64,000 nucleotides of DNA from Marsupella aquatica (GCA_973895155.1 OZ316897.1:21170260-21234259); one strand, 5' to 3'; shown: positions 6,201 to 46,900, numbered from the stretch's first letter. Translations and numbers: made by a program. The notes: generated from the letters alone by a model not told the origin.

Positions 6201-6433
6201 TTTTTGGGCAAAGATTTGTCCATTACTATATTTCCCTGAATTTCACGGACCTCTGTAGTCGGGGTGGAATAGTTTCCAATTCTTGCGACCAGGAGTTTTA
6301 GTCTCAGGTGAACAGTCTCAAGAGCTCGCTCTACTTGCATCAATTTGAGTCTGTTTGATTACGACTAATGTTACATGTACTGCCATCGTCTACATTGCAG
6401 GTGTACAGATTAGAACGAATATGGGCAGACTAG
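251..6433 (+). CDS. SBE3: 1,4-alpha-glucan (starch) branching enzyme, class III (SBE3/AtBE1-like), 5' part outside the window
   Basis: GT-AG exons splice in frame: 251-315, 527-1426, 1602-1771, 1920-2009, 2393-2468, 2672-2779, 3034-3124, 3354-3455, 3607-3709, 3960-4097, 4219-4287, 4573-4728, 4858-4935, 5100-5210, 5330-5410, 5626-5730, 5894-5973, 6128-6182, 6401-6433 ([10 protein letters not shown]). GH13 branching-enzyme motifs: [67 protein letters not shown]. Confidence 0.95.
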
Positions 6434-6850
6434 ATACCAGCTGATAGGAAGAATTGTAACAACATATACCCACGCTGTAGGCTAGACGTTTTGCAACATC
6501 TCCAGTGTGTATTTCTGGTGGCTTGAATGTTGTCAATGAATTTTTGAGCAAGTCTACGACCACATTCACGTACTTGCCTCAGTCAGTTGCCCTGGTTAGT
6601 ATCAGGTAGTTATCTCTTCTACCTTGGCTAGAGTCACAGGTTTATTTGTCACCATAGAATCATAAAACACAAATCCACTACTTATGCATGCAACTTACAC
6701 CATTGTGAAGTCCATTTTTGTGTGGGCATATATAAATCGTCAATTGGGGAGCGGAGAATTGCCACTCGAAGTTAGTAAATTTAAGAACTTTTTGTACACT
6801 GGGTCATCAGTGTCCTCTAAAACGAGGAACCATGACATCGTATTCACCAA

Positions 6851-11319: not shown

Positions 11320-12400
11320 TATATTGCAGGTGTACAAACTAGATCCAATATGGGCAGAGAGATACTTGCAGATGAGGAAGAACTGCACAACACATAGCCA
11401 CTCTCTATGCTAGACATGTGTGTATTTCATGGTGGCTTGTGTGTTGTCATGAATGTGAGCAAGCTTATTAATACAGTCACAAATTTGTCTCAAGGGATTA
11501 TATCAATTTAAAAAAATCTGCCCTGGTTAGCATCACGTAGTTATCACTTCTACTGAAGCAAGACTGGCATGTTTAATTGTCACCTTCAACCACTTTAATA
11601 TGTGATCCTGTCTGCCAAAATAGACCCCAAGACTAACAGGCACAAGGAGGGAGAGAGCAGAAGGAGCACAAGCAGGTGAGGGAGGCACAAGGAGGGAGAG
11701 GAATTCTGAGCAATTCTTGCAAAAGCTCTCACCACAAGTGTACCTCAATTTTCCATACCCATTTGCAACGTGCACCCTTTACTTTAGTCAACCACCTAAC
11801 TGAAACAACTATAGTTGTGGCGCAACATGACTGCCCCGACATGAGATGGTTGGGACAATAACACTTGCTTATTTCACTTGCACTTCTTTGTCTCACCTCA
11901 GCATTTCTACGTGACGCACAGGAGTTGCAATGACTCTTGACCACAATGACAATCATGGAATGACAGCATGGCCGGTTCAAGTGCATGACCACAATGACAT
12001 ATGAGTTTAAGCATCTTAATTATGCATTATGTCCTCGTTGAAATAATGGACTTCAATGTATTCTTCAATTTTTTTTGCTTAACACTTGCACACCCCATAA
12101 CATGGACGTGACAACAGTATGGCTGCAATGATCCCATGACCACTATGACTATCATGCAATACATGGGCATTAGGCTAATAGAAGCATGAAACACATATCC
12201 ACTACTTATGAATGCCACGTCCAGCATTTGTGAAGGGCATGTGTGTGTGGGCCTATATAAATCTTCAATTGGGGACCCAAGAGCACCCTGAACTTAATAA
12301 TGTTTTGTACACTAGGGGAGCACCCACTCAAGTCAGTAACTTTACTATTATGTTGTACACTAGGTGATCAGCATTTGAAATCTAAAACTAGGAACCATGA
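11320..12400 (+). pseudogene. Duplicated SBE3 last exon and downstream intergenic region, part of a segmental duplication, with a ~590-bp insertion (11585-12177)
   Basis: 'attgcaggtgtacaaactagatccaatatgggcaga' matches SBE3 6394-6429. Similarity to 6430-6840 continues but is interrupted at gtcacc^atagaa. Confidence 0.8.
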
Positions 12401-12414
12401 CACTGCAATTACCA

Positions 12415-12545
12415 ATAACATTTTGGGTGGAAAGCCAAGTGGGCATTCTGGGGGCTGGGGTCTTACAAATTGGGTACTGCCTATTCTTTAAGCTCCACAA
12501 AGTTTTTGTGTATTCGTAATAGATATAATCATGATTGCAGTCTAT
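12415..12545 (-). pseudogene. Degenerate extra copy of the 3' part of the RING exon
   Basis: 'attttgggtggaaagccaagtgggcattctgggggctgggg...catgattgcagtct' aligns with 6861-6983 and 12571-12695, with indels and substitutions. Confidence 0.75.
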
Positions 12546-12561
12546 TTAATTTCTGGATCAC

Positions 12562-15500
12562 TCAGAAGTAAATTTTGGGTGGAAGGGGAGTGGGCATGCT
12601 GGAGGCAGGGGTTCTACAAGAGGGGCACTGTCTATGTTTTGAGCTCCACAACGTTTTGGTGCACTTGTAACAGATATTAGCATGATTGCAGTCTTTCCAG
12701 TAGGCCCGCTGCTGATCCAGATGTTGTCCGAACTCATTCATGCAAATGATACACTCTTCCACCTGCACCCAATAAAGCCAGATGGAGACCCCATAACAAG
12801 GTCTCATTTGTCTGTTTCATAACTAGATATAGTTTGCTTCCTTTCAGTCATCCTAACCAAGATGACCTTCCCTGTTGGTTGGTAATCAAGGCAAATAATC
12901 CATGATTATATCCTAGATAACAAATGTGCCTTCACTGACGGTGGGGATGTCTGGACCCAAGAGATTCATGAAGATTTGCTTCATAAGAAATTTGCATATG
13001 TTAAGTAAATGTTGAGAGGGAGACACCACTATGATCAAATCTGGAAGACGAGAATTTTGTATAGGTGCACCACTTACCTCATCCCTCTTGAGCTTTTGGA
13101 TCTCCTCTCTTTGTTCCCTGATTTGTTTGGAAGCCTTCTGCAATTCCACGTTTTTGAGTTTGATTTCTGCATTTCGTTGCTCCAGTTGGTTAAGCAGATC
13201 TTTGCACAATTCTTCTAGTTCCTCCCCTTCAGACACTCCTGTCCTAAGCTTAGCAGATTGCTCCTCCCACCTCTGCCTCTCCATGATGAGATGCAGGGGA
13301 TGCCTATGGGAAACGAAATCCGCTACATCCGTCTTTTTGTGTTTCCCATTCCACATATCGCTTTCGCTTTGCGTCAACTTCCTAAACATGCCATCCGAAG
13401 GTCTCTCCATCTTTCCGGTGGGGGCCTGATGGCTCGAAGCCTTTTGTCTATCTTCTATTCTTCGTTTGAGATCCAAAGCTTGCAGTTCTACATGCAATTC
13501 CTCACTCAGAATAGCTTGAGTGGCTGCAATTTCTGATTTTACGCCTAAAGCCAGAAACTCTTGAAGTACTTGCTCAGATTGTAGCTCTGAATTACTCAGG
13601 ACAGTAGCAGCATGCGGGAATAACTCCTCCCTAAATGATCGTGCATCACTTGATATGGCCTTTGGAAATACTCCGTTGATGTCCCCTCTCTCCAAATGCA
13701 CATAAATGTCAACAATCTGCGACAACAGCTCTCTTGGATTGAACTCGTATTTCTCAGGATTATTAAGTCTAAGCATTCTCCGTTGAGGCCCAACCAATTG
13801 CATCAGGAAGTAGTTAAGCATTGAAGCAATTCTTTCCACCATCTCGGGAAGTAGGAAGGGAGCCGTTATTTCAGCAGAAGTGTAGCGCAACATTTTGACA
13901 TCCTCTTTTGCCAAAGTCATATCAATTCGTACAACATTCTCCTGTTGATGGAAAAATCGAGTTCGTTCCTGGGGAGTCGGACGCTCCCACTCGGCAGTAT
14001 TTTCCATCTCTGCCTCCATCTCTTTAAGTTCTGACATCTTATTCAAACTCTCTTCCAGAAGAGATGTACTGTCGTTGATCAGGAGATTGAGGAACTTCAA
14101 ATACGCTCCCCTTTCTTCAGTCACAGCAATCTGCTTCCAACAAGTACGGTGAGAGGGTACATCCCATAAGTATTCCAGAAGCTCTCCGATATTGTACCGA
14201 ATATTGAATTTGTCATAGAACTGTGTTTTAGAACCGGTGAACTCAATCTCTACATAAAGCTTGAGAAGGTTTGGCACCAGGTACTGCAATGCCAGCTGAT
14301 GCCCTTCGAGCAGGGAAGCCATCGAATTTCTTAACGCTGCTGAATCGCTCTTCGATGGCATCCAGGCACTTAAGACTTCCACCATTTTGGCCCGTAGGTA
14401 AGGATTTTTGACATGGAGAGGGCTTTCCATGAACATTACAATGAAACTCATGAATTCATCCAGAACCATTCCATCTAATGCCCTCGGAACTCGAGACGCA
14501 AAAAGGAGAAGTTCCAATGAGTCCTCGACAAAATGTTCAGGCATTGAAGCAAATTCCATAGGGCACGGAATAGGAAGAGGCATCTTGAAGCCCCCGACGA
14601 GGCTAACGAGCCAAACAATCATCAACCTGTAGAAGCTCAACGCGTTCTGAAGAAGAGCAGTATCCTTCGACAGCTGTGCCTCGTAGCAGTACCAGTCTTG
14701 GGAAAGACGTTCAACTAAAGCCATTCCCTGCATTGATTCCAAATTAGGAGGTGCTCTAACATCACGTAGCCATCTAAGGGTATTCAAAGCCTTTTTCTGC
14801 CGTGAAAGCTCCTGTGTGATAGACTTGAAGTTTGAAATGGCCTTCACCAGTCCCAGATTCAATACTCTCGCAGTCAGGAAGAAACACTCGCAGATAAAAC
14901 TGTAATTTCTTTGCTCCGGCCCCGAGCGGACTGGAACCAGTAAATGGTTCAAGCCATTGCTGGACGACGAAGTTGTGGCTTCGTGTGAATCCATACGTCT
15001 CATTTCTTCTTGCTCCTTCTGCTGCCGGAAACCTTCATTGCGAGATAGGTTGCTTTTATCGACCCATTCAGCGACTTCTTCCGAAGTAGCATGCAATCCA
15101 GTCAAAGAGCTGAAATCGATACGCCCTTTGTGCAGTACATACCCGGCATCTATTTTATCTCTTTTAGAAGAAGAGATGTCAAAGAAAGGTTTGCAGAGAC
15201 TCAGCATAACAGCACTCAAACACACGAACATACCATTGCTGGCATTCGTGAATGGGTTTGCCTGTAGGACTTCGCTTTTAACATTCTTCTGAATCAGGTC
15301 AGCAAAATATTGAAGAACGGATTCTCTGTTGTCCGCAGATTTCAGAAGCTTCAGCAGCAACTCGTGCAATCCTTCGTACAGCTGATGCATAACTGTCCTG
15401 ATCGTTGCAAAAGAAGAAATTATGTCCGAAGGCACCCGATAGCTGATATCGGCGAAGCACCGCTGTCCGACATTTGGTTCACCGTTGCCGAAAACGGGAT

Positions 15501-22805: not shown

Positions 22806-24405
22806 TTGTTTTATAATCTTATGTATAAAGCCAGAAAGGGAGCTATAGTTGAGTTCTAGGCTTCTAGAGTGAAGTCTATAGACAGTGACTCTAGAGCCCC
22901 ACCATAAAATATGTACATAGAAAAGAGGATGCTATATATATATATATATATATAACGTGAAGGGAAGCTAGAGTTGAAGTTTAGAGAGTGAAACCTCTAG
23001 ACCGCAACTCTAGGGCCCCACCATATATGTGCATAGAAAGGAGAATGTCATAATATGTATGATTGTTAAAATGATGGGGCCAGGCATGGTGGTTTTTTTT
23101 TATCAGACATTTCATTCACCTTCAAAGAATGGGAATAGTAAATATATTTGTTGACACTTTATTGTCCTCTCCACTATTATAGGAATCATGTTCTTTGACG
23201 GGTGTCGGGGCTAATATAAAGTAAAAAGAGAAGAGAAGGAAACAACACAACACTTGTGCATGGACAAAGAATTAAACAATTTGAAGAGATGACACACACG
23301 ACTACTTCAATGCTTACATTCCTCAATGTTGCTAGCATATTGCTCCGACCAGAAAAATTCCTGGGGTCCTCACTTTTTGTCTTCTGACTCATCATGCACA
23401 AATAAGTTTAAGGTGCTTTAATTGAATTTCATGAAAGACATACATTTTTGTGGGCAAACATTAGAGGTTTTCATCCAGACAGTTTTGAGCAATCAAGAAA
23501 AGACAGGCATTTTACAAGTAGTTTTGGAAGATTCCAAAATTATTCCAAAAATATGGGGTTAGAAATGAGGTTAAAAACCAACACAAGGATTAACAAGGTG
23601 CTTGGATGAACTCATAGTACCTGGATTGAGACAAACCAAGCATCACTACCTTATACAGTCTGTGTAACAGTACTCATGAGTTTATGATTCATTTCATATA
23701 TCACCCTATTCATTAAAACTGGAATTTCTCTAGTCCAGAAGTTGACCTTCAAATTTCTTATTTTACCCCCAAAAGTTCTATAACTTGTTCCCCAAAAGCA
23801 TACATTTTAGTTGCCAAATATACACTTTTTGAGGTCTAAAATTACAATTCTAATGCCCAAATTATTAATTAAATAATTCAGTTATCAATTATTAATACTT
23901 ATTAATTAAAAGACATTAAAGTGTTCTTATTATATACAATATAAACAATGAAAAAATAGAATAAGACAATATAATAAATTGAAATGACCCTGATAACCAA
24001 GTTACACAAAGTAACACGGAAGGTAAACCGGTGATGTATTATAAAAGTAAAAAACCTATTTTTACAGGGCCGAGACCACGTCTGCCCCAATGCAGGCTCT
24101 AGATGGTTTTGACCGGTTGTTGAATGTATATCAATTACTATGTAAAAATCTATGTCAAGATTATCTCGACCCAAATGTAGGGTCCACATAATTTTGACCC
24201 CTTGTTGAATCTATATCTCTAGCTATTCCCTTTGTATAGGGTCTAGACCCAAATAACCTTTTTCTGAGAACATATCTACAAGTAAATGAGGATCAACAGC
24301 ATCTAGACTCAAATGGATACTACGCATAGCTTCACTCTTTTTTCGAGTAAGAATATGTATATGTACAACTCACATCGTAACTGTTCAGTGTAGGGTCGAG
24401 ATAAT

Positions 24406-25680
24406 CTAGACCCAAATCTCATGCTCCTCCACCCCGCAGAATTCATTTGAGCAAGTAAACCTAGACCCTGACGGGTCATATTTCATATCGCGATTACAGA
24501 AATTGAGAGGCTTTCTATTCCAGAACTTTGTTGTGAGGTCCCTACACCTCAAGACTTCCAAAACAAATCCCCGATGATTGTCTCTGTAGGGTCTTGTGTA
24601 CTGATATCCAATTAATGTCTTTGCAAGGTCGTTGATCGCCTCCTCCGTCAATTCCTCCATTGGTGGTAATTTTTGCACTTCATTTTTGATATCCCAAGGA
24701 ATTTCGTCCGCTGTGACATCCAAGACTGTATGGAAAACGGAATGAACCCATACCATACTACCCCACCGCTCCGTCAACAATGCATAAATGGAAGCCTGTT
24801 GATCTCTGTCCGATAAAACATTTATCATAGACCACTTTGGATGATTGATAAAAAGATAGTGCTGAAGATTGAAGGCATGATACAATTTCCTGAGCAGAGG
24901 CCACAGTATTTCTGGAAAGAATGTATCATCCGTGGAGTGATGCGAAAATGAGGAAGGAAACAACCCACAATTCTTTGGATTTGCAAACGCCTTCATTGGA
25001 GTGTCATCAAGAAGGAGTGTATTAGTTTCGTCATATAATCCACCATAACGTTTCCAAACAACCCTCAAATCCTTCAAAAGAATATTTGCCTTCCCATCGG
25101 TAATGTCAGGCCTCTGGATTCCAGTATCGAATGTATCTTCTTGAGTGAGAATAAACTTGAATTGCTCTCTCTCTTCTTGATTGAAGATCAAATGAATCAT
25201 TTCATCCGTCTTGGGTTTCCTTGCACAAGTCCAAATGGCAACATCAAATAATGAAAAAGCTGCGATTAAGAACTCGTGAAGATGGGGTCGCTCAACATAC
25301 ATAAAGTTAAACCCTCCACGTCTCCCCCAGTGGACACCATTGACACTTGTCGCACTACGGCGCGGTCCGGAACTTGGCGTTTTGACAGAATCCCAGCACA
25401 TTTTGTTGAGGTCAAGAATCAATAGCTTCCGTCTGATCGGACCGTGAAGTGGAGGCAAGGGTCCTGCAAAGTACGAACACCAACGTTAGAATTGTGGGAG
25501 ATAAAACAAAGGAATGCTCGAGACGATCTCGAGCATCACAAGTGAATGAACAACAGTCAACATCATACCTGTTATTTGTGGAAGGTCAGTAGTTGAAGAA
25601 ATCTCAGGACATCTTCGGAGATTATTGTCGACGCACTCCACAATTTGTAAGGGCCCGCCTATTTCTGTGAAGGTAGACAT
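24406..25680 (-). CDS. FCP1/NIF-family HAD phosphatase-like protein (transposon cargo)
   Basis: Exon 25680-25569 (ATG; donor G|GTATG) and exon 25463-24406 (acceptor CTTTGCAG|) join in frame. Motifs KLLILDLNK, ERPHLHEFL, FDVAIWT, LLKDLRVVW, NTLLLDDTPMKAFANP. Confidence 0.8.
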
Positions 25681-25734
25681 AATAATTTAGACGGCTGAAT
25701 TTCCGGACAGTTCAAACTAACTTGGGTTTCAACC

Positions 25735-28700
25735 TCACGTGCTGAAAGACCCAAATTCATCTAGAAGGTTATCTCCTAGTTGGTTTTGGATGTCCAAATT
25801 TATCCCTCCGGGAAGGGTCTCAACAAGAGCTGGCTCAGACCAAACTGACACTAATTTGAACTTATCCATCCTATACTTTCTAGATCGAATAATCTTCTCA
25901 GACTGCTCTATAGAGATGTGTTGACCTTTTGACGGTCCATCAGTCCAAACATAATGAGTAGCACTTGCTTTGAGTGATTTGTAACCAGTTCTACCGATTT
26001 CAGTCCCCGGTTTCCTAACAAAAGGGAGAATTACGGGGCTTCCAGTAGAAGAATCTGTGAAAACAAGCTTATTCTCTGAAGCGCAAAACATTTGGTCCAA
26101 GGGAGAGGACGATGCACCTGCCTCGTCCTGAGGGGGAGTATGGAAGCCACTAGCTTTCTTAGTAGAGAAAATCTCATCCAGTTGAGGAGGGCTTGGAATT
26201 GGTTGGCTAACTGCATCCTGCAAGGTGGATTCCCAGCCAACATCCAAGGTTGAAGACTGTTGTTCACGTTGTGCATCCCCAAGGTCACCCGATGAAGGAA
26301 CACTTGGAACATCGAGATCATCTCGAGCATCATTTCCAAATTCAGGGAGTATTTCACCCTCTTCTTCCATGTAGCTTGTAATTTTCGGGCCCTCCATTTT
26401 GCGATGCTCTAAATTCTCCGCAAATACTTCCTCATAAACACTGGCTTCCACTGGAGCTATGTCTGTGGCCGCCTCTTCTATAAGAACGAGGGGACCAGCA
26501 GTAATTTCCTCAGATGGTAACGGCTCCTTGGGTGGCACATATAAAACTTGCTTGTTGTCATGAAGGAGCTGAGCAAAGGCTTCAGTGAATTCCATCTCTT
26601 GAGCTGTGTCCGAATACACAAAACAATCCCGACCAAGAATGACACAAGCTTTCAATGTCTGTCCTCCAGAGAAGAAATCCAACACTGTATGACCTGGGCA
26701 CGAGAAATAATCAACAAGACGCTTTGTCATTCGCAAAGGCTTTGCTCTCGGATTTACAAAGCCACCACGCCGACCGACCATCTCATAAGATGGGGCCATC
26801 TTCTCCAAAACTTTGACATCAATAGTGGATTCATCGAGCTTCTCTTTCCCATTTGATTGGTCTTTGTTGTTCCCAGTAGGGGCCTTCAAAGGCAAGACTG
26901 TGAAGTCTTTGTCCCACTTCTCACTGTAGTTCCAGAACGCATAAAAGTCATCAAAGAAAATTTGGGACCAGTCTGGTTCCTCTTCACAACAAATTCCCCC
27001 AAAGATGATTGAGTATCGAGCTCCAATGAGAAAATCTCCCTCCTCCTTGGGCACCTGATCACGGTAGTAGCTCCCGTACTCCAGCTTCGTGTGCACTTTC
27101 TTCTCACGACGAATCTTTTCAAAGGCACTCTGAATCTGGCCTATCAATGGGCCTTGACGGACAAAAAAGATTACTAAGACCTCCGTCGAGTTCGCCATCT
27201 GCAAGCAATACTCCAGCAAGACAAAAATTTCGGCATCTGTCCACTACCATTGTCGAATACGACCAAAATCGACAATGGAGAGTGGACACGTCCTTTGCAC
27301 CGAGTCAACAACCTCAGGCTTCATTGTCCTCATCAAATTATCGCTAAAAAATGTGCGATAAGGAGTATCCTCCATTGAAGGCAATCCGCCAAATACCTTG
27401 CAATATATCTGCTCAAGCCTCACAATGAGACTTTGCGGAAATGGGTCTTTTGGCCTATTTCTTTTTAGGAGGTTGGAAATCCAAACCTCTCCAGCAAGTT
27501 GTCTAAGTTTGGGCAACTCACCACGATCCATAAATGCAGGCAACAATTGAGTTAGCTCAAACCAAGTGAGTGAATTGGTAAACCGATCCGGATACTTCAA
27601 AACGAAGTACTCCATAATTTTTACCCTCAGCTTGGTCATGACTTTGAAAGTATGAGCCATATCACTCATTGATTGAATATCAGATTTGTTGGCTTGGTCT
27701 TTCTTCAATAAAACCTTCTGTTGTTGAACGGCAGTAAAAACTTTCAGAATGTCGTCATTACTCAGGTCTCCTTCAAAGCATCTAAACAATGCCGGCGTAA
27801 TCATTTTTGTTGTCCGGGCTTTCCCGTTTATTTTTGAACCTAACTCCCCTAGACCATCCGGAAGAAGTCCCTTGACCCAATCGATGCACATTTGTCTCCA
27901 AGTTCGGAAGAGGTTCTCATCCGAAAACAACAACCAAAAAATATTCCTCAGATCAGATTTTCCAGTCGTTATTTTGGCAAGGGCCATAAAATCCTGGTCC
28001 AAACAGTACAAAACAAATCTGAGGCTCGAGACGATCTCGAGGTAGAATTAAGAAACTATGGTAAAATTTATGGGAGAATACATGAAGATAAATCAAATAC
28101 AGAAACTTGACCTCGAGGCTCGAGACAATCTCGAGCTCGAAGTGGATTTGAGTTCAAATATACCTGGAACTTTTGATGATCCGTTAGTCTATTGGACCCA
28201 ATCACGGGTCTCTCCGGACGGCCACACTCGTCAAACTGTCGACGCGCATGGACCATAGTATCAAGAAAACAGGACTCATACTCCATTGTCTTATTAACAG
28301 CATTTGCCCTTTGTGAGTGTTGAGCAAGTATTGTCCTTGGAGTTCTGTCCGAAAGAATTCGTGACTTCCAATATTGCAGACTCTTCGCGACCTCCTTCAA
28401 CTTTGCATCGCTCTTAGCCCAACCTATGATCCAAACAGCTGCTTTTGCCGAGTGTTGTCCACTGATTGCAAGGAACTGCACCTTCTTATTCTTAACACCC
28501 CACTCAAACTCCTTTCGATCCTCAGCAGTATTCTCATAATGGAGCAACTGCAAACTCTCTCTTGAATACGGAATTAAATTCGCCATAGCTGGTACCATTC
28601 CAGGGTTTCTAACCATGGATTTTGCAACCTCCATGGCATGGTCTTTATTGAACATCCTATAAACCAAAACTGCAGATGGCGAATCTATACTGGTGACAGG

Positions 28701-30678
28701 AATGTCAAAAGTTTCATTCATGCCAAATGTGTAATACTCCTCAATCTCCTTAAGAACTTCGGCTCCTTCCTTAACGCTCTTTTCTCCCGGAGCATCTCCT
28801 GGAGTGCCATCATCATCGGTATGTGCATTCACACCCGAGGAAGATGCCGGAATGAGATCTACCTTGGGCGATGCGGACTTTTTTGGTGGATGAGCCTTCT
28901 TCGATTTGATTTCGGGTTTGTCAACCCTCTTCCTCTTTTGAGACACCTTCGCTTCCTTTTTGTCCGAACCGGAGGTCTTGTCTCCTGCAGCTATGGATTT
29001 CACTTTACCTGTTTGTCTCCGATGAGACAACACCCACTTTTTACAAGCATCCTGGTCAAATTCTCCGGCTCCAAACACAAAATCAGGGGATATAGATTCA
29101 AACTCCCCCAATTTGGATTCCAACATTAGTCTCAAAACCTTCCACGTGAAAGGAGTCGTGAATGCATCATCGCGATCAAGCCCATACTTCCGACAATAAA
29201 GGAATCCAAAAATTATGTCCGCTCCAGATATAGGAGTATCTTCTAGCAAATTACTTGTAGTAAAACCCTCGGGGAAGAAACCCATTGATATCACGCTCAG
29301 TTGTTTCCTGGCTGCACGTTCAATGTTAAGATCGCAAGAGTAGTTTTTGGCGTGAAGTCTAATTAGAGCCCACTTCCCTGTTTCGTGGTTCTCCACCGTC
29401 AAAACCATGTCCTTACCGTTACTCGTCACAATAGAAACAACAGGCCCTAGAAGGCTGCACACCAGAGGATCGACTGATGGAGACTTCGTCTTCACACAAA
29501 TAATAGTTCCTTCCATGTCTTCAGTTTCAGCAAGCTCAATGGCCCAACAGAATCCAAATAAACTCTATCCAGGGCAGGAAATCTCAATTGCATGTTCATC
29601 TTCGACTACCAAATTAGGCGATCCCAATTTCGCACTTGGTACAGCAAAAATGTAGCAATTGTCAGAAACATGTACTACAAAACCAAGATACAAATAGGTG
29701 GCTCGAGATGATCTCGATCTTCAGTTTACTATTAGACATGTTCCAATGCCATTTCATCCGTGGAATTTAAAAAGAGATTTCAAACCCAAGAATCCCAGGA
29801 AACACAATAGGCTCGAGATGATCTCGAGCCACCATCTGTTTAAAAGAAAAAGATAAGGGCTCGAGATGATCTCGATCCACATATATATCAGTTGAGGCTT
29901 TATTCCAACTGGTCCAAAAGGCAAGCTTGGATCACATTGAAAAGGATATTAGTAATTGAAGTAGACAACAAGGAGTCCTTCCAACTGGAAGAAATTGGCC
30001 AAGGGAGACGAATGAACATAAGGGAAGACGGTGTGGGATATATTTGGCTCGAGACGATCTCGAGCCTAACATATCAAATGAGTGATCTGAATATCATATT
30101 CAACAATTAACATCATATTCAATCAACGATAAAAAATCCACTTTCTCCATTAACTTCTGATACCCACAAACCCGTTCGGATGTCAATGATCAGAACGAGT
30201 TGGAGGGCACAGAAGTCCCTGGAGGAAGGAAAATTTAGATATTTTGGATATGATGTTCAATTTTGAAGGGTAAGGGTTTCCAACTTGAAGAAATCTCACT
30301 AGGTCACATGCAGGAATTGCATATTGGCTCAAGACGATCTCGAGCCTCATGCCACTTACATCAAATGCAAAATCAATTAATAGATCATAACTTTTGAAAC
30401 AAAATATTGGAGAAAACATCAATAGGCTCGAGATGATCTCGAGCCTCAACGGCATCCAAGGAATCCAAAAACAAGTGGACCAATTGAAGCTCGAGACGAT
30501 CTCGAGTTAAACCTGAACAGAACAAAGATGAAGAATTACGTTTAATGGTGCGATGGATCTGATGTGCTGAGTCTAGATGGGTCTGGAGCTCTTCGCCAAT
30601 GGTTGCAAGGTTGTACTCAGCGAAGTCCTCCTTGGAGAAATCTACAACAGTCGACATGGCTGGTGATGAGAGGAACAT
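25735..30678 (-). pseudogene. Multi-exon transposon cargo gene: ParB/Srx-like domain + beta-class N4C/N6A DNA-methyltransferase-like domain, with nonsense lesions
   Basis: ParB-like segment IPVTSIDSP..YRMFNKDHAMEVAKSM...FLAISGQHSAKA...ANAVN (~28720-28280). Phase-0 intron 28163-27994 joins KFQ|DFM. In-frame TAG at 27246-27244 and another TAG at ~29565. MTase-like PRAKPLRMTKRLVDYFSCPGHTVLDFFSGGQTLKACVILGRDC (~26751-26620). Likely first exon 30678-~30540; the exons between it and ~29640 are unresolved. Confidence 0.65.
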
Positions 30679-31810
30679 ACTACGGGCTGAGAACTTAAAA
30701 AAAATCTCGAGCCTAAAAAGAAAATCTCGACCCTATCAAAGCTCGACCCTAAACACAAAATCTTGACCCTATAAAATCTCGAGGAAAAAACCTAATCTCG
30801 ATCCTCTGCAATCTCGAGGCTAATAGAAGGATCTCGAGGCAAGAGCGCGAAACGATCTAGAGGCAAGGAGGCAAGGGACGCGAGGAGGCGAAGAGGCAAA
30901 GAGGCGAGGAGGCAAATGTGAAAATGGGGAATTCAAAACCCCTGAAGCCACTATAAGCCCCTCGGGGGTCGGCCTTGGCCGTGCCAAGCGTGCCAGGGCT
31001 CGTGCAGGCTCAAGCAGGCTGCCACGCAACCTGCTGGGTGCGTACAGTCATTATTACGGTCACACGTGTTGTCATTATTGTTATCCGTACTTCAGCCCTG
31101 CTGCAAGTTTAGCCGTGACACAAGTTCAACCATTCCGTCTTATTGCCCTTTTTGTCTGTCAGGGTTTTATATATTGCTTCTCCTTGCTCTTCAGCGGGTC
31201 ATTCTTCTCATTTCATTTCACCGCTCGCTCGTTTCTTCCTCTGCCTCTCTGCTCTCTCTCCCTCTCCCTCTCCCTCTCTCTGGCTCTAGATTTGTGCTCT
31301 GATCTCTTTCTGTTGTTCTTTTCAAGGGTTTTGGAGTCTACGTTTGTGTTTAGGATATTTCGAGAAATTGTCATTTTAAGCCCCGAAGGAGGTCTAAAAT
31401 AATTGAGCTCCTATCTTTTAGAAAACCGAACCTTTTCAGCTTATACTAATGTCGGTCAAAATCCATTTGGAAGCCTTTTCCCTCTATTTGATGGCCTTTT
31501 AGAAGCTTTTTCTCAGTGTCTGGAAGTAAACTGGGAGCCTACTTTCTTAATTGCACCAAATCATTCCTCTAGATCATCTAGAGGCATTTATATGTTCTTA
31601 TTTTGGGTGGCTTATTATTCCTAATAGTTTCTTTGTCAAATACAATGTCCTTTTTGGCTCGAGATCATCTCGAGTCATAAGTTTGGTCCTCAAACTTATT
31701 CACTTTCCCCTTCTTTCTAATGGTGCATTTGGTTTTCCTTCTTATAATAAATGTTTTTAGAGTGTCGGAGGTATAGAATCTTAATTCGATATTCAGTGAG
31801 ATTCATATTT

Positions 31811-32030
31811 TACCTCGAGATCGTCTCGAGCTAAATACTTCTGAATTTTTACATATTGGTGTTTTTGGTCCCTTTTCTACCTCGAGATTGTCTCGAGCTA
31901 AATACTTCTGAATTTTTACATATTGGTTGTTTTGGTCCCTCTTCTACCTCGAGATCGTCTCGAGCTAAATACTTCTGAATTTTGACGTATTGGTGTTTTT
32001 GTCCCTCTTCTACCTCGAGATCGTCTCGAG
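31811..32030. repeat. ~67-bp tandem repeat (3.3 units), each unit carrying the 17-bp CTCGAG palindrome
   Basis: Palindromes at 31814, 31881, 31948 and 32014, separated by ctaaatacttctgaattttt. Confidence 0.9.
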
Positions 32031-33454
32031 GTAGAAGAGTTTCTTATTTTCTCTATCACACAATTTTGTGGGATAAACTTCTACACTTGGGTTTTTGTAG
32101 TCACTTTACCTCGAGATCATCTCGAGGTGATCTCGAGGTAACTACATCCAACGGTTTGGGCCACGTTTTCAAAATGGGGAGTTTCTCTCGAGGGGACAAG
32201 GTGTGCCTCGTAATCGACGGAGTGGAAGTTGCTTGCGGGATGGTCCTCAAGGTTGACCCGGGTGACTCAGTGCGTAATGTTGATTTGGGAAGTAATCGTA
32301 TAGGAGTTCTCATTGAGAAGTGCTATGAGGGATCACAGGAAATTCCTTACCCTTTGCCGCCGATCAGGACCCTGTTTGATGCTGTCGACTCTTGCATTAT
32401 TTGGGATGCCTCTTTTGCATATTTGAAGTCACAGTCAACTCCAGCGACAACGAAAATGGATGCCTCCTGTTCTAGAAAGGATACGGTTCCGGGTTTTGTA
32501 CCAGAGAAATCGTCGGTGGAAATTTTTGGAGAGTGACTCGATTGTATCTGGCGATGAAGTCGAGGTCTGGATCGGCAATCAGATTGTGGCTCGTGGATTT
32601 GTGTTCAAGACGAATCCCGATGAGACATGTCACAATGAAAGACTTGGCACTTCTAGGATTAGTGTGAAAATATGTGAAGTTTTTCAAGGAAGGGAGAGGT
32701 TACCCTTTCCTCACAATGGAGCCGATACCGTTCAGGAAGCATTGGATACTTTTGTATTGTGGAATTTAAAGGATGTTACTCGGAGGAGTTCTTCCCGGGA
32801 TATGCTAAACAACCTGTCCAGACAGGATGTTTTTTCAAATTATAATTTCAAGGATTATAGTTTGCGTTCTAATTGGATGACCGAGGAGGTGGAATTGTAT
32901 GCTGAGGATAATCGGACCAAAGTGGGGGTTGGCATCATCACAGTTCCTTTCAAGTCAGGTGCAATTGATGATGATGTTCTTGGACCAGATCATGTTGGGG
33001 TTGCTGTCACACGCGTGATTGACCCTCTATTTTTCCCAAATATCTCCCCAGGAGTGCCTGGTCTTGTTAGGTGGGCCGTCCGTTCACTTTTGCTGATATC
33101 AAGGGGTATTTTTCTTCTGGATCTCATTGAAGAGGTTTCTCCGAAACCAATTATTGATGGTCGAGATCATCTAGAGGTAGATATGAAAGGTGACACTAAG
33201 TTTTTGAAGCGCCCGTATAATTTCATCAAGAGAACGAAGGTCAACCCAGATGAAAAAAGGAAGAAGCACTTGGAGTCTCGGGCGATACTAAAAATCACAG
33301 AGGAGGAAATCGACTCCATCCAAAGAGAAGGTTGTTGTAAGTTGAAGTGTTGCCTCAGCATGCCGAGAGAAGACCTACAGGAGATAAGGAGGGAATACCA
33401 TGGGATGTCAAGCGACAACAAAACCAGTCACATTCTCACTCTTTTTGGCTGTAG

Positions 33455-35137
33455 CACTAGTACATTTTACCTCTTTTTTCCGATTCTCTCCACATCGGAC
33501 GCCTTTGTAAAATAAAATTTGAAAAACCATATATCCGATACTACTAGCATCGCAACATGCCATTTTAATAGTATCGGATATCGACAATCGGACTTCTATC
33601 GGAAAGTCCGATGGTGGGAGAATGGGAAAGTCCGATGGTGGGAGAATGGGAAAGTCCGATGCTAGGAGAATGGGAAAGTCCGATGGTTAGAGAATGGGAA
33701 AGTCCGATGCTAGGAGAATGGGAAAGTCCGATGGTGAGAGAATGGGAAAGTCCGATGCTAGGAGAATGGGAAAGTCCGAAGCAATCAAAATGGGATATGC
33801 ATTTCAGTGGACGCGATATGTTCAGGTCACCTATCTCTTCCTTTAATTGGGTTTCTACTTTCATTTGGAACTATGAGCTAGGTGCCCATCTCCCTTGACA
33901 TGTGAACTATTCAAATTTTCTCAACTAATTGGTCACCCATCCCAATTGCTATTCCTCCAACATGAGCTTAACTTTGTGGTTCTTATTCCTTACATTGTAC
34001 ATGCAAGCTTAGCACTTTTGTTGTTTGACTTAGAGTGTTTGGGGATTTTATACACTTGTGAGTTTACTAAGACCCATAATTTGGATCCATTCTTGATCCA
34101 TTTTTCTCTATCATGAGATTAGATCTTTGCATCAAGTGACCTATTCTAGTTACCCTATTACATTCCCCTAGGAGAAACCAATAGAAATCTGGCAGGGGTC
34201 ATTCATCGATAGTAAAGCCCTCCTTCATTAGATTTGATATGGGATAATTATGGCTTATTAGTTATGGATGATATTTTGGTCCTTCCAAAGCCTCAGCGTC
34301 AATGGCTCCTGATTGTCTCATCTTTTATCAACTATGTTGTTGTTGGACTTGCAACAAAGACTACATGGGACAAGCAACCTCCTTCTAGATGATGAATTTT
34401 GGACTTGGCATGTTGAGCATATATTTCCGTAAGGGAACAATATGTTGGGTCTTGGAATGAGGCAAAAACAACACTCAAGTCCATTTGCCTCAAGTATGAA
34501 GTTATTCATGCATGCAAGAATGATTGCATCTTTTGGGAAGAGTATGTCGGTGCAACCACATACCCCATCTAACACATCAAAACTTTTCATTCTAACACAA
34601 TCAAAAATTTTCTTTTTGTCATAACCAGTCTTTCCCATACTCCCAGCATCGGACTTTCCCATTCTTCTAGCATCGGACTTTCCCATACTCCCAACATCGG
34701 ACTTTCCCATTCTTCCAGCATCGGACTTTCCCATTCTTCTAGCATCGGACTTTCCCATACTCCCAGCATCGGACTTTCCCATTCTCCTAACATCGGACTT
34801 TGCCATGTTAGCACAATCGGATATAATATCCGTTATTATTAACTACGGAAAGTTTCCGATCAATATTGTAACACACATCATTTTCGTTACAAAAAACATC
34901 GGACATATCAATCAAAGTTTCTGTTGAGGGATCCGATGTGTTTTCTAACGGATATGATCCGTTTTTTAACGCATCGGAAAGGTTCCGTTGTCAATTATAT
35001 CGGAAATGAAGATATCCGAAGCCGAGAGTATGGCATATTGCCATTTTTTGATAATCAGAATTTCCGATGCTAAAAGAATCGGACGCCGATTGTTCGCAAA
35101 AATTGAGCATCGGAAATCAGCTTAATATGTACTAGTG
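33455..35137 (+). mobile_element. Non-autonomous CACTA (En/Spm) element nested in the transposase
   Basis: TIRs CACTAGTACAT / ATGTACTAGTG, 3-bp TSD TAG. Many TCCGAT/ATCGGA subterminal motifs. TnpD remnant WNEAKTTLKSICLKYEVIHACKNDCIF at ~34454-34535. Confidence 0.95.
33601..33780 (+). repeat. 24-bp minisatellite (ggaaagtccgatgStRggagaatg, ~7.5 units) in the CACTA left arm; inverted mirror array at ~34630-34803
   Basis: Read directly; it produces the spurious GEWESPM repeat ORFs. Confidence 0.95.
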
Positions 35138-38100
35138 TAGGGAGAAGGAAGTGGAGACAAAAGGATATTTTGTTGTAAGAAGTAGACTTGTTTGCAAGGG
35201 TGCATTTATTAAAATGCATGGATTCAGCACTGCCAAGTATTATGATTACAAAAATCAATATGAAGCAGGTTGCACGGTTGGATTCCACGGAAACAAGGGT
35301 TCACACAAGACACGGGGAAGCACCTTGCATGCTCGTGCTTTGTTGGAGTCCATTCTAACCCAAAACGGAGAACCCATGCCGCATCTTCCCTATGGAGGGT
35401 CTCACGGGACTGACACGGTTGAGTACAGACTTCCATCTTGTTTCACGAAGAAAGAGATTTTTGAGGAGATATACTCAAAAATGGAATTAGATGGCTACGT
35501 GAAGGTGAGTGAAAACACTATGTATAAACTCTGGAGTGAGTCCTTCATGAATTTTGACTTTCACAAGGGAAGTGCATTTGCAAAGTGTACACTTTGCACT
35601 GAGTTCAAAGATCAGTTGATGCGGGAGAAGAGAAAGAAAGAGCGTTTAGAGATTGAGGAAAGAAGAGCTCGCCATCTTCGTGAGCAAATGTCTAGGATAT
35701 ATGTTTACTATGCTCATAGGGTTCTTGCGAAGAAGGATCCTGAGAACTATCTTTGCATTATACATGACAAGATGGACCAGGCCAAGACATGGATCCCTAG
35801 GTTGGTCCCCACTCCTAAATCATTGTCTGGTAGTGGTCAATCGCTCCCCATTGCGCTCACTGGGATGTTGACCCATGGAAGGGATCCCGGAGTGTATGCT
35901 CACTTCAGTTTTACTGGGCTTTGGCCAGGAGATGCAGACTTCACAGTGACATCATTGGCCAAGTGCCTTAGAGATCTGGAGGATTACAAGGGGGACAAAT
36001 CTGGAGACCTCCTTGAAGGATTATATTGGGCTGCAACGAGGCCAATTTTTCAATCTCTTTTGGACTTTGAAGCATTTCTCGCAGGTTACTTAGAACCCAA
36101 AAAAGTCTCAATTGCTAGATTTCAAGGAGCTGAAGATGACCAAGACGACTTTGGTGTTGATCCCAAGGCTACGTCTACCTCTTTCAAACCATTGCCAAGG
36201 CACCTGACCTTGCAAATGGATAATTCAGGGAAAGATAACAAAAACCAGTACATGATGGCATTTTGCAGTGAGCTTGTTAGTAGAGGGGTTTTTGAAACAG
36301 TGCAGATGTCGTTTCTCATGGTTGGTCACACCCATGAGGATGTCGATGCATTGTTTTCAAAAGTATCCAACCAAGTGAAGTACAAGGAGGTTTCTACCCT
36401 CTTGGGGTTGATGGCTGAGGTTTGGGAGTGTGAAAGCATTCATCCTGTGCCACGGTTGATCCAAGAGGTTGCAGCTTACAAAAAGTTTTTGAAAACTTTC
36501 AAGGTAAAAGATATAGAGGGTCACTCAAAACCAGTGACATTTCTTTTCTCTATGAGAGATAATGTTCCAATATATCAATACAAAGCACATGTGAAACAAC
36601 CTTGGTACCCTCCAACCGGAAGGTCCATTTGGAGAACTGATTCCAGCACCAATGCTCTCATTTTACCAGAAGGTCAACCATTTGCAAAACCCATCTCCGG
36701 GGATGTACGAGGCAAGGTTGAAGAAATCATCCCATTCCTTAATCGTTACATTGAGTTTTTGAAGAAGAGCTGTAAGGATGAGACCTCTACAGCATATCGT
36801 GAGCGGTTTCCTTTGGTGAAATATTGGGAGATGGTGGTGCAAGTATTATCTGGGGAGCTTACAATTGAAGGGGAGGCAGAAATACAGTTAGCATTGACAT
36901 ATGAATTCTGGCCAAAAACCAACCACGGAACTGGTTACAAGGTTAATAGTACAGGAACCTCTGAACCATTGGGGGAGCCTAGTAGTAGTACACAGAATCC
37001 ACAAATGGTGGAGCTTCAGAATGAGTACCTGGAAGAGATGGAGGATCAAGCTGCAACATTTGTTGGTGCTCGACACGAGCGAGAACTTGCACGTTGGATT
37101 CCTCTGCAGGACATTCAAGAGGGTCACTTTGTATTTCTCCGTCCAGAGGATGAATGGGAAAGGAAGAATGGGAAAGAACGTTTCTGGTTGGTGAGAGCTT
37201 TGGGTGTTGTGGACCCAAACCATGAGGTTCCTTCAGGAGACTTGCAATGCAATGAGAATTCTCCTACTAGTACACGGTATGCTCCTATGTTCCAAGTGCA
37301 ATGGTGGAGGCCTAAACATGGTAAGCATGATGCACCGGATCATGTGCGATATTCACGTTGCTTTCAGACCACTAAGACTTGGGAGGTGGATCCTGGGTTT
37401 GACAGTGCCACTGAACGTTGGCAATTTGCTAATTCTGCTATGTATGGATTCAAGTCACGCTCTAGAGAAGAAAATATAATTGATAGAGGTTTGACCATTC
37501 CCAAGAATGTTTTGAAAACACTCAAAACCTACATGGAAGGGATTGTTGAGTAAGTCAAATGTTTTTTAGTAGTCACTCTGTCAGAGTGAGGGAGTCTAGT
37601 ATGTCAATTAGTTTGGAATTAGACATGTCAGAGTGAGGGAGTCTATGTCAATTAGTTTGGAATCAGACATGTCTTTAGTACTTACTGAGTGTTGGTTAGT
37701 ACTAAGTACTAGTATATCTATTTAAGGAACTAATTATTATAATATTTTGGGATACTAGTTTGAATAGGTGGAGGTAATTGGACTTGGATACCTTTATAAT
37801 TGCTTCAATTAATTATTATATCAATACAGACTATATATTACATGAAGTCTTAATATCCATGATAGGATGTGAGTGCCTCTTAGTACTGTCTAGTAAACCT
37901 TAGTTTCAACTCGAGTTGCTTAGAATGTACTAACAAATTACTTGTCTGAATGGATATTTAAACTAAACCCTAAGTAGAAGGTTAATTTAGCTAGCTAAGG
38001 GTAGAGATCATATTGAAGCTTTACTAGTTATATGGGTAGAGATCATATTATTTGAAGCTTTACTAGTTATATGGGTAGAGATCATATTGAAGCTTTACTA

Positions 38101-38689
38101 GACACTTATATTCTATTAGTCAAATTGAATCAATGTAAGTAAATTCTACTTCTTATCCAACATATTTTACATTATTATCACCCAAATGTTTTTCTTTAGA
38201 ATCCAAATTAATATTTCATTTTCTCCTATGTACAATCTTGATCCCCCAAATGTACAACATCTGGTGCCCAAATGTACAACTCCCACTGCCCAAATGTACA
38301 ATTCTTGTGCCCAAATATATATTTTTTGGTGCCTAAATGTCCAAAGATCAAAGAATTTTCCAGTTTTAATGAATAGACTGATATATGTTAATAAATGCCA
38401 AACTTTGGAAATGCAAAGTGGAAGCTTGGATGGACGCAAATGTTTGACATTGCTAGGATGGACTCAAGAACTTTACACTGTCAGAATACTCTCTCAGCCT
38501 TCTAGTGTCATGATACGTGATAATCAAGAGAGTCAAACTCGTTCAGTTGAATGGGAACAGAGGCCACTGCATGGCAGACTACTAGAGGAATCCACACTTT
38601 CCAAACATTCTATTAGTGGTCAAATGCAGGGTTCCATGTCATTTTTTGAACAAAAGTGTAAAAACACTCTGTAAGTAAACCAACATGTA

Positions 38690-44387: not shown

Positions 44388-45093
44388 GATTAAAAAGAGG
44401 CAGGAGCTGCAATGCTAAGAAAGGACTTTGCTATCACAATAGACGTTGCTTTCCAGGTTTGGTGATTGTGGCTGTATGTTTGCTCAAACTGTCCTGGCTT
44501 GGATATTGTCATGAATTTGAGCAAACATACAGCCACACAATCACCAAACTCTCTCAGTCGTGTGTCATTTTAAACCGATCTATCTTGATTAGCGTCAGGT
44601 ACCTATTTCTTCTTCCTTAGGCACAGGTTTATTTGTCACCATAGAAGCACATACTACACAGATCAGTTCTGTGTGCAAACAAGGTAATATCATTGTTTGA
44701 TCATATGAAGCCATTTTTGCGTGGGCTTATGTAAAGCGTCCATTGGGGATCAGAGAGCTCGTCAGAGAGCACCCACTTAGAGCCAGTAACTTAACCATTT
44801 TTGTGCACTGGGATGAATGAATCTCGTTGTCGGTAAGCTAGTAACTTAACCATTTTGGTGCACTGGGATGAATGAACCTCGTTGTGGGTAAGTGTCGGGG
44901 AGGTTCCTCATGACATTTCTGTATTGGGTTAAACAATAGGGAGGATCGAATGCACACTGCGAGCCATTCTTTGTCCTTATTTGCAAAAATTCGCCAACTT
45001 CCGCCGTTTTACTGGACGGGCATCTAAAGTACAAAAGAAGAAAATTGGAAAAAAGAATTTTTTGGTCACAGTTTTCCCATGGCTAGCTACGAA

Positions 45094-45420
45094 TTACAAG
45101 TAAATTTTGGGTGGAAGCGGAGTGGGCATGCTGGAGGCAGGGGTTTTACAGATGGGGCATTGCCTGTTCTTTGAGCTCCACAAAATTGTGATGCACTTGT
45201 AACAGATATTAGCATAATTGCAGTCCCTCCAATAGGCCCGCTGCTGACCCGGATCTTCTCCAAACTCATTCGTGCAAATAATGCACTTTGCCACCTGCAC
45301 CCTACAACTCCAGATGAGTTCAGTGTCTCGAATGTGAGTTCCAGTTCTCTCTCTCAACTTTCCACTTATCCCTCTCAGCGTCGTGTAGTGTCAATAGGTC
45401 CTGCAATATCCCTTCAGAAA
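45094..45420 (-). pseudogene. RING family copy 3: intact RING exon (45294-45094) with a deleted coiled-coil remnant
   Basis: VAKCIICTNEF...CNYANICYKC...CPIC...PPKIYL*, with the His ligand changed to Tyr. 45335-45420 reads SEGILQDLLTLHDAERDKWKVERE. Downstream 44500-44810 resembles 6520-6810. Confidence 0.8.
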
Positions 45421-46900
45421 ACCAAAGACTAATTGGCCATATGATCCTTGCCGGCTGGATATTGTGTTTGATTGCATGCTACATGTAGCCACCTCCAGAC
45501 TTTCGATTGTCAAGTATTTAGAAAATGTCACAAAATCTGTTAGGTCGACCTTACTCTTAATTCGTAGATCAAGTTGTTATTAAGAATAAAACGTGCGGAT
45601 GTGTACATTAAATTCATTTAGTAGAAGAGGACCTCATAGGAAGATGGGGATCATTGATCTCTAAGAAGAAGCAGTTGAGTTTGTTGCTGTTTGTGAAAAG
45701 ACCTCTGAAATATACTTTGACCGGTCATTGCATCTCCAGTGGTTTGTCCAGATTTCGGAGTCGCAGCGACAAATCCTGCTGAACCGACTCCTCTGCGGAA
45801 TCCAGCTCTGCCCATTTAGGAATTCCTGTCATAGTTCTTGTCTCGTCTGTAATTAATGTCCTTCTCCCCGTCTGCCCCAAAATCTGAGTAACATTTACAA
45901 AAGCAAGAAATCCCGAGAGCATACATCTTCTGTTCGTCACTCATCCTTCAGCTGTCTTCTAACATAAATCCACTTGATTGATTCCTTTTCCTATTCCTTT
46001 CCGCCTCTGTTGGTTTCTTCAATCTTGTTCGACGTCTTTTGACTTTCTTTTGTTTTGGAGTAACTGAGAAATCGGCAGGAACCTGAGGCTGCGTCTAGTT
46101 TTTACCGTTGGGACAGAAATGAACATCTTCCGGCTCACGAAAGAGTGACGGCAATATTCCCATTCAAGGAAAAGAATGGGGGCAATATACATATTCCCAT
46201 TTATAATGGTGGAGGGTGTTTTAGTGTTTTTACTCAACTCTTGGAAAGCAAGGAACGAGTCATCTCACAAAATACAAAACCTCTGTTTGATCATGACCAT
46301 GGTAGGGTTCTTGTTTGGACCGTGATTGTTCCCGTGTCGTGCTCCTTTTGGTCGATGGAAGTAGAATTCAGTTTCAATGTCCTGCACCGATTACTATTTA
46401 ATATTTTTAACCTGAGAAAGATTTGTGTGACCTGACCAGCCCGAGGTCTCTCAAGCTGTAGGGTTCTTTCACCACCGAATCCAAAACATCAATTATGTCT
46501 CGTTTCTTCAAAAGATGTCTACAAATACACACACAGTACATTGCTCATGAGACTCTACACAACTAAATCAACAGTACAGAGCAAATCCTGTGTGTTTTCT
46601 TGTTCAATGGAAGCGAGGACAACGTTGCATGTTGGTCTTGACTTTCTCAAAATTGAACTCAAATACATGGCGCTTTTGATTAGAGTGCCTTGCATTAGAT
46701 CACAACACCCAGGCTTTCTATTACACAGCAATCGCTTAAAAACATATTTGTACGCCCACCCAATGTTGTCATTTTCTACATAGCAGGTTCTGTTTTTGGG
46801 GAAGATAATAATAAGAGTGGAGCGAGTACTGATAAAACCATATTTGTACACTTGGTGACACCTGTAAACAAGGAAGCATGATATTTAGTTTACGGTTCAC

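Follow-up and report, generated by a model that had tools for sequence, protein, structure and literature searches.

The ParB-parS, KorB-OB and Noc-NBS systems of bacteria and plasmids use 13–17-bp palindromes dispersed on one replicon or element, and in the En/Spm (CACTA) transposons TnpA binds subterminal repeats, a ~12-nt unit found singly and in inverted pairs near an end and the promoter, with autoregulation. We know of no experimental work on self-recognition by Sola1 transposons. Here, we analyzed an array of short palindromes in a Sola1-type DNA transposon from Marsupella aquatica, present as a single copy (self-BLAST) in a 64,000-nt stretch of DNA (GCA_973895155.1 OZ316897.1:21170260-21234259), the whole of which is called the window below. 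This transposon codes for a Sola1 transposase and, divergently, for an accessory protein with a ParB-like part. In the Ectocarpus element Sola1-1_Ec32, also a large Sola-1 transposon with a 4-bp target duplication, an opposite-strand gene encodes a protein with ParB-like and DNA-methylase domains, and the authors suggest that this protein may bind and modify its own element (PMC12477816). The best match listed there for the Ectocarpus element, Sola1-1_PPa, shows only that Sola1 occurs in a moss (PMC12477816). In Plavaka PAG3 of the red alga Bostrychia, tandem inverted-repeat arrays adjoin an accessory gene whose product has a ParB-like domain at its N-terminus, and self-binding is proposed (bioRxiv 10.1101/2025.02.11.637652). 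The VANC motifs of Arabidopsis VANDAL transposons are described as short, family-specific and non-coding, residing in tandem repeats that grow, shrink and rapidly diverge, and differing between related families (PMC10398659). Accessory genes of the ParB-plus-methylase kind in Sola1 and algal transposons, as well as the idea of self-binding, are therefore already in print (PMC12477816; bioRxiv 10.1101/2025.02.11.637652); our literature search found no paper on palindrome arrays in Sola1 elements or on ParB-like transposon genes in liverworts, and none naming DUF7869. Our leading, still tentative reading, drawn from sequence comparison, is that a protein encoded by the element docks at the palindromes in a family-specific manner, the most probable candidate being the Sola1 transposase, acting through the region ahead of its catalytic core.

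The palindrome array itself was confirmed. The 17-letter palindrome CTCGAGANNNTCTCGAG matched the window exactly 13 times (0.00 expected from 100 dinucleotide shuffles) and 20 times with at most two mismatches (0.08 expected), all of these within 25517–33176. The initial annotation had listed 17 full or near-full copies, every one of which was recovered at this threshold together with an additional overlapping copy at 32121; its variants at 31567 and 33160 were also recovered with CTCGAGANNNTCTCGAG, and those at 24155 and 24395 with the 15-nt core TCGAGATNATCTCGA. The core had 22 matches at two or fewer mismatches, all in 24155–33175 and including the variants at 24155 and 24396, and 26 matches at three or fewer mismatches (2.48 expected). 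The family consensus has G at 24157, which turns the left-end site into a perfect GTCGAGATTATCTCGAC. The earlier statement that no site lies outside the element proved true in the window, with its one element copy. The hexamer CTCGAG occurred 49 times, 38 of them in the element versus 11 in the other ~49 kb, and all 26 of the 26 occurrences of ATCTCGAG fell in the element. Scanning of viral contigs with the palindrome returned 31 loci with one match apiece, which by a rough estimate is about the chance number, and no clusters.

The palindrome, whose 21-bp form is GGCTCGAGATCRTCTCGAGCC, is best described as two extended half-sites ATCTCGA(G/C)CCTA arranged head to head over 17–21 bp, the building unit being a half-site of ~10–12 nt (ATCTCGAG/C-CC-TA). 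At two or fewer mismatches, the extended half-site ATCTCGASCCTA matched 33 times against an expectation of 6.35, with 29 of these matches in the element. Lone half-sites also occurred, about nine in the same orientation at 30697–30860 and six in both orientations at 24093–24415, and Tandem Repeats Finder reported 20- and 36-bp units at 30697–30817, so that the half-site cluster noticed initially is real. The center of the palindrome is asymmetric and reads TCG, TCA or TTG, variants that look like decay of one CpG. The symmetric double change at 31567 preserved the palindrome (CTCTAG...CTAGAG), and beyond ~4 nt the flanks of most copies were unrelated, indicating that block duplication is not the explanation for them.

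The strongest arrays lie between and around the starts of the two divergent genes. The accessory-side array (29702–30506) consists of seven palindromes, at 29702, 29812, 29860, 30048, 30328, 30427 and 30490, with the center YGA on the plus strand; these seven sites are in the 5′ region of the accessory gene, a candidate intron or leader. The direct-repeat array (30697–30860, plus strand) contains the nine or so half-sites, ATCTCGAsC, all pointing the same way, and precedes a possible accessory ATG at 30658 by a short distance. The transposase-side array (31567–32137) consists of nine palindromes with the center TCR on the plus strand, all located in the promoter or leader that precedes the transposase ATG at 32175. 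Within this array are 3.3 tandem copies of a 67-bp repeat (31811–32030) and, at 32110–32137, three CTCGAG hexamers spaced by 11 bp. The latter spacing is about one helical turn, and the 17-mer can be read as two XhoI-type hexamers on the same face of the DNA; at 28112–28135, three hexamer starts are spaced 7 and 11 bp apart. Away from these arrays, two sites (28025–28041 and 28119–28135) occupy the intron 27994–28163, which was confirmed by a spliced relative, one (25517–25533) is in the 25486–25734 gap between accessory coding blocks, and two are in coding sequence, an imperfect one at 26311 and a variant at 33160–33176 within the transposase. The left subterminal cluster (24093–24415, both strands) contains the six extended half-sites, including the palindrome variants at 24154–24170 and 24395–24411. 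Thus, the proposal that the sites lie mostly in introns and the promoter region holds for the two in the confirmed intron and the nine ahead of the transposase, and fails for the two coding and the two left-subterminal ones. The right end contained only look-alikes of the core with three mismatches, at 38002 and 38076. Right subterminal tandem repeats (37999–38319, plus strand) consist of 2.8 copies of a 39-bp unit with TAGAGATCAT as well as 22-bp units with CCCAAATGTA, and resemble the half-site only weakly; CCCAAATGTA was also considered as a repeat common to both ends (12 matches, 5.04 expected) and was rejected, its matches clustering at the right end only.

The central C of 18 of the 20 sites belongs to the sense strand of whichever gene is nearest, and the two arrays are consequently mirror images. 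This strand bias could be expected if the sites acted as RNA hairpins in 5′ leaders and introns, affecting splicing, stability or small-RNA production, and the intron RNA indeed folds each palindrome into its own 7-bp hairpin (z −2.9). However, such a fold follows trivially from palindromy, sites are also found within the left subterminal cluster and, among relatives, 3′ of the open reading frame (ORF), and the lone half-sites and direct-repeat arrays are unable to form hairpins. Half-sites standing alone in direct repeats indicate that hairpins are not the explanation, and we consider this possibility very unlikely.

To compare genomic copies of the element, we used Logan contigs of four public sequencing runs. 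Contigs aligned on 29680–30090 at 80% likeness showed 27 variable positions, which were clustered in these local alignments, and none of them fell in the four 17-nt sites that make up 68 of the 411 nt. In a diverged lineage with 26 differences in 140 nt, 30046–30069 was yet unchanged. Constraint on the sites has moderate support from these comparisons. Copies in run X1 also differed by whole units, as seen from the joints 29830>30420 and 30701>30737 and the back-joint 31909>31867. In the same run (organism A), contig depth over 30044–30071, comprising a palindrome and its close flanks, was ~19,700 versus 1,900 in the neighboring bins; this ~10-fold excess indicates many further contexts for the palindrome unit besides this intergenic region, possibly other subfamilies or a satellite.

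Whole-unit differences between copies and the 67-bp tandem repeat within one array are what might be seen if there were no dedicated binder, and the sites were a self-expanding palindromic minisatellite or host-factor sites that spread by slippage or unequal recombination in non-coding DNA; the palindrome of one related locus (L034, below) moreover contains CACGTG, a common plant factor site. Such spreading is hard to reconcile with flanks that are unrelated beyond ~4 nt in most copies, for which block duplication is insufficient, with sites that stay intact where their flanks diverge, with the double change that leaves 31567 palindromic, or with motifs that are specific to each family and related where the transposases are related. 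On balance, we regard a minisatellite or host-factor origin as unlikely.

The evidence that bears most directly on the identity of the binder came from relatives of the element. A metagenome scan with the transposase alignment identified 80 loci, which form 62 non-redundant clusters. By tblastn, the accessory ORF blocks had no relative in any of the 80 loci, and the ParB-like ORF block gave no profile match in their six-frame ORFs. At least five families nevertheless carry their own 13–26-bp palindromes or half-sites beside the transposase ORF, and among the six loci with a transposase ORF of at least 500 aa, five have a recurring palindrome or half-site within ~1.5 kb of the ORF. In L032, TTGGCCATATGGCCAA had nine matches (0.08 expected), eight of them upstream at 527–1583 of an ORF that begins at 1929. 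L034, with 8.6 kb upstream of its transposase start near 8661, has in that upstream region a 24-nt palindrome, GAAATCTAGCACGTGCTAGATTTC, with three matches (0 expected), along with half-sites; L033 and L060 share its half-site GCTAGATTTCC. L051 has 10 sites with CACGGGTGAACACCCGTG, distributed to either side of the ORF, L081 contains CACGGG(C/T)GCGCCCGTG, and L098 has a 37-bp tandem array with TGGGATGTGCCATCCA (five matches, 0.07 expected). The degenerate copies L043 and L100 each have four matches to CTAGTGGCCACTAG (0.01 expected), and no array was seen in L036, for which 660 nt upstream were available. A crude and weak statistic based on palindromes with 6-nt arms placed only L051, L081 and L089, the last of them AT-rich, at least 2 above the null among the 62 loci.

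Motif and protein covaried among these loci. The transposases of L051 and L081, 81% identical, go with motifs that have the outer arms CACGGG...CCCGTG in common and differ in the center, while transposases that are ~30% identical go with unrelated motifs. For the pairs L034/L033 and L051/L081 (82–84% identity in the gene), nucleotide similarity starts at the gene and the arrays are unalignable, the motif being kept. Family-specific motifs, half-site and dimer-site forms, conservation against diverging flanks, dynamic arrays and a promoter or leader position argue together for binding sites that co-evolve with an element protein. Sites for a dimeric element-encoded protein in general are thus plausible. 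The arrays appear to go with the Sola1 transposase without need for a ParB-like gene and, accompanying the one and not the other, they point to the transposase as the more economical binder.

The Sola1/DUF7869 transposase gene (32175–37553, plus strand) was located by tblastn with P0001, P0002, P0003, P0006 and P0009 and matched PF25273 with E 3.6e-44; we take the DUF7869 protein to be the Sola1 transposase, and the Sola1 assignment leans on this equation. It has 182 relatives, the best of them from liverworts, Calypogeia fissa and Riccia sorocarpa being named as the closest. A CCx3-4CC motif and a helical stretch ahead of the catalytic core are common to all relatives, and residues 385–477 of the L032 model gave a weak winged-helix-like match (Z 5–6). 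The front of these plant-type Sola1 transposases (window 32175–33449; L032 1929–3728) is built from a small beta-barrel module repeated two or three times. For the L032 model, Foldseek ranked highest ADCP1 and AGDP1, tandem Agenet proteins that read H3K9me (E 3e-3, probability 0.96), and VIA-align returned KOW and Tudor domains (Z 5–6); the modeled beta-barrel front hints that the transposase may read chromatin marks.

If the palindromes are docking sites of this kind, a dimer would occupy them, and the dense arrays that flank the divergent promoter and extend into transcribed leaders and introns could serve as operator- or enhancer-like sites. The sites would then make transcription of both genes, and perhaps recognition of the ends, depend on how much of its own protein the element produces. 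Arrays would expand and shrink by unequal recombination between sites, and their specificity would shift together with the protein.

Several observations weigh against the transposase as the binder. The strong arrays are central, 6–8 kb from either end and away from the positions that a transposase has to bind, weak site look-alikes are all that the right end offers, and the 25-nt inverted ends bear no resemblance to the motif. Sites in the accessory introns would be easier to explain if the binder served the accessory gene, and the hints of a DNA-binding fold in the transposase are weak (Z <8). The contigs of the short relatives (L032, 5.6 kb; L051, 3.0 kb; L081, 1.7 kb) could end before an accessory gene located farther out, only L034 and the long degenerate loci giving room for one. 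The clustering of the variable positions and the local nature of the copy alignments reduce the weight of the apparent site constraint. Finally, the analogous binding in VANDAL elements is by an accessory protein rather than by the transposase (PMC10398659).

The accessory gene of our element, on the minus strand and divergent from the transposase gene, codes for PH/PTB-like, ParB/Srx-like, methylase-like and NIF/CTD-phosphatase-like parts. Its block at 28164–29720, with 88 relatives, contains the PH/PTB-like domain, for which fold matches reach only Z ~5–6, a basic linker and the ParB/Srx-like domain with its ISGQHS motif. The confirmed intron (27994–28163) follows, the spliced relative P0131 joining the same two exons at the KFQ|D junction. 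The middle coding block (25735–27993) comprises a linker and the methylase-like part, with the imperfect site 26311–26327 in its coding sequence; the gap 25486–25734, holding site 25517–25533, must contain intron sequence; and the last block (24406–25485) encodes the NIF/CTD-phosphatase-like domain (PF03031, E 1.3e-16; UBLCP1 3shq, E 9.7e-10). A splice model joining 25464–25738 was dropped because its product was out of frame, and a first exon starting from the ATG at 30658 had no in-frame join to the next block.

The initial annotation had compared the palindromes to parS sites for a dimeric protein, and the dimer-like layout of the half-sites and the encoded ParB/Srx-like fold agree with that comparison in part. 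The accessory protein could then load onto the sites in the manner known from parS, OB and NBS, and its dimer would regulate or protect the element as KorB does on RK2 and VANC on VANDALs. Ten sites are in the introns and 5′ region of the accessory gene. The ParB/Srx fold was the top match in two aligners for residues ~270–449 of the 28068–29564 ORF (AF2 model, pLDDT 78): Foldseek gave Noc, ParB and PadC with modest E values of 0.05–0.5, and VIA-align gave pNOB8 ParB-N (Z 7.0), PadC (6.9) and KorB (6.8) as the top rows among 48,161 chains, again with modest scores. ParB binding has been put forward in print for Sola1-1_Ec32 (PMC12477816) and, with adjacent inverted-repeat arrays, for Plavaka PAG3 (bioRxiv 10.1101/2025.02.11.637652).

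The link between parS and ParB is where this comparison falters: several of the 80 loci in which no ParB-like relative was detected have arrays adjoining their transposase genes. Moreover, the ParB/Srx domain is the nucleotide-binding part of ParB and not the part that reads parS. Where a palindrome-reading helix-turn-helix might be sought, the model of the accessory protein ends after two helices; the linker exon that comes next had no usable relatives, and the atlas search with it gave no lead above 0.81. The near-invariant stretch aligned at the ParB nucleotide-binding box reads SGQHSAxAA; it departs from the canonical GERRxRA box and is closer to the DGQHR type. No ParA-like gene was found among the 11 ORFs at 18–42 kb of the window that were scanned against Pfam, a scan that spliced small genes could escape. 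Further searches were uninformative: Pfam even at E 10 gave nothing useful for the ParB-like ORF, the linker ORF or the transposase front ORFs, a PDB profile search with accessory alignment A1 returned low-complexity matches only, no longer relatives of the ParB-like ORF were found, and in the metagenomes accessory alignment A2 gave 164 pattern matches of which none was confirmed, alignment A1 being too variable for such a scan. Loading of the accessory protein is nevertheless a serious rival to the transposase reading and the main one, though the less probable of the two.

In a more elaborate version, a bacterial-style ParB system would operate in a land-plant transposon, with the PH/ParB-Srx/pseudo-methylase/pseudo-phosphatase protein loading as a clamp on the palindromes like KorB or Noc, spreading, and using its CTD-phosphatase-like end to hold RNA polymerase II or to block silencing. 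This scenario, which if true would amount to sequence-addressed self-protection of one transposon family, we judge decidedly improbable. The NIF/CTD-phosphatase-like C-terminal domain is closest to UBLCP1; its DxDxT position reads DLNKM in our interpretation, and the domain may be a non-catalytic binding module.

The methylase-like part had suggested that the sites might be modified, that is, that CTCGAG, TCGA or GATC within the motif are methylation targets of this domain. The domain matched PF01555 (E 2.6e-6) and contains a stretch resembling motif X-I of M.RsrI, and the motif does include short palindromic words of the restriction type. This idea was weakened by the finding that only the motif X-I stretch of ~50 residues aligns to M.RsrI, and arrays are present in relatives without such a gene. 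The catalytic DPPY position reads DFGR in our interpretation; the one common difference from the family consensus near it, 27286 A>G, is synonymous. We therefore consider methylation of the sites by the element's own protein extremely unlikely. By these readings, all three boxes of the accessory protein (ISGQHS, DFGR and DLNKM) appear to be non-canonical.

The host element spans 23700–38382 (14,683 bp, or 13 kb without a nested insertion), with a 25-nt terminal inverted repeat at 23700–23724 (plus strand) and 38358–38382 (23 of the 25 bases match) and an ATAT target-site duplication at 23696–23699 and 38383–38386. The duplication, in the one copy examined, agrees with the AWWT target preference described as a hallmark of Sola1 (PMC3845634). 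The element is multi-copy in the source genome: in run X3, depth rose from ~15 in the flanks to 400–900 inside (30–60-fold), and single-copy contigs stopped at 23727 and resumed at 38357. The present copy is dead, having two private stop codons, a frame change and the nested insertion. The present copy differs from all four runs at 27246 and 29567 (A>G in the runs), and each difference turns CAG into TAG in its accessory gene (stops at 27244–27246 and 29565–29567); the transposase reading frame is broken near 32535 and by the insertion. Both private stops are CAG>TAG and the difference at 24157 is a CG>CA change, C-to-T transitions as would be expected if methylated cytosines had been deaminated while the copy was silenced. 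The insertion is a CACTA-type non-autonomous element (33455–35137) with CACTAG...CTAGTG ends and a TAG duplication, carrying inverted subterminal arrays like those that TnpA binds in En/Spm, made up of a 24-bp unit, GGAAAGTCCGATGSTRGGAGAATG, with ~7.5 copies each at 33601–33779 and 34630–34806; the joint 33449>35136 in four of four runs revealed host-element copies without it. Elsewhere in the window, mutually similar stretches (65–88% identity) at 6391–8591, 11320–13503 and 44586–48875 point to another, unrelated dispersed repeat family.

The 10–12-nt half-site offers a concrete probe for binding with the two candidate proteins, the transposase and the accessory protein. Should whole genomes show the same pattern, palindrome arrays specific to each family would count among the general design features of Sola1 and provide a simple subfamily marker. 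The result also tempers the recent proposal that such repeats are bound by the ParB-like accessory proteins found in algal transposons, the repeats here being independent of that gene. Accessory genes of the ParB-plus-methylase-like type, described from algae, are thereby known from a liverwort-type genome as well, where a CTD-phosphatase-like domain joins the other parts.

Compared with ParB-parS, KorB-OB and Noc-NBS, our element has in common the dispersed palindromes and a ParB/Srx-fold protein encoded by the same element, and differs in having no ParA found, a non-canonical nucleotide box, a eukaryotic host and arrays whose presence among relatives does not follow that of the ParB-like gene. 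The En/Spm TnpA repeats are similar in their ~12-nt unit, present singly and in inverted pairs near an end and at a promoter, from which autoregulation would follow, whereas our element has its strongest arrays in the center and few sites at its right end. Sola1-1_Ec32, compared by description, is 21.5 kb long versus 13 kb for our element, whose host is liverwort-like (nearest proteins from Calypogeia and Riccia) and whose accessory protein also has PH-like and NIF-phosphatase-like parts; the word palindrome is absent from the main text of that report (PMC12477816). Plavaka PAG3 belongs to the EnSpm/Plavaka superfamily, and its ParB-like domain is fused to a 2-oxoglutarate oxygenase, whereas here relatives without a ParB-like gene also have arrays (bioRxiv 10.1101/2025.02.11.637652). 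The comparison with VANC made in the initial annotation is apt as an analogy, both being family-specific motifs in fast-diverging, non-coding tandem repeats. It differs in that VANDALs are Mutator-like and not Sola1, that VANC motifs are described as short motifs and not as palindromes, and that their binder is known from chromatin immunoprecipitation sequencing (ChIP-seq) and in vitro binding, whereas binding to the present sites is predicted (PMC10398659). No VANC homologue was noticed in our element, although no search aimed at one was made. Taken together, the arrays described here belong to a known kind, the cis-acting site arrays of transposons.

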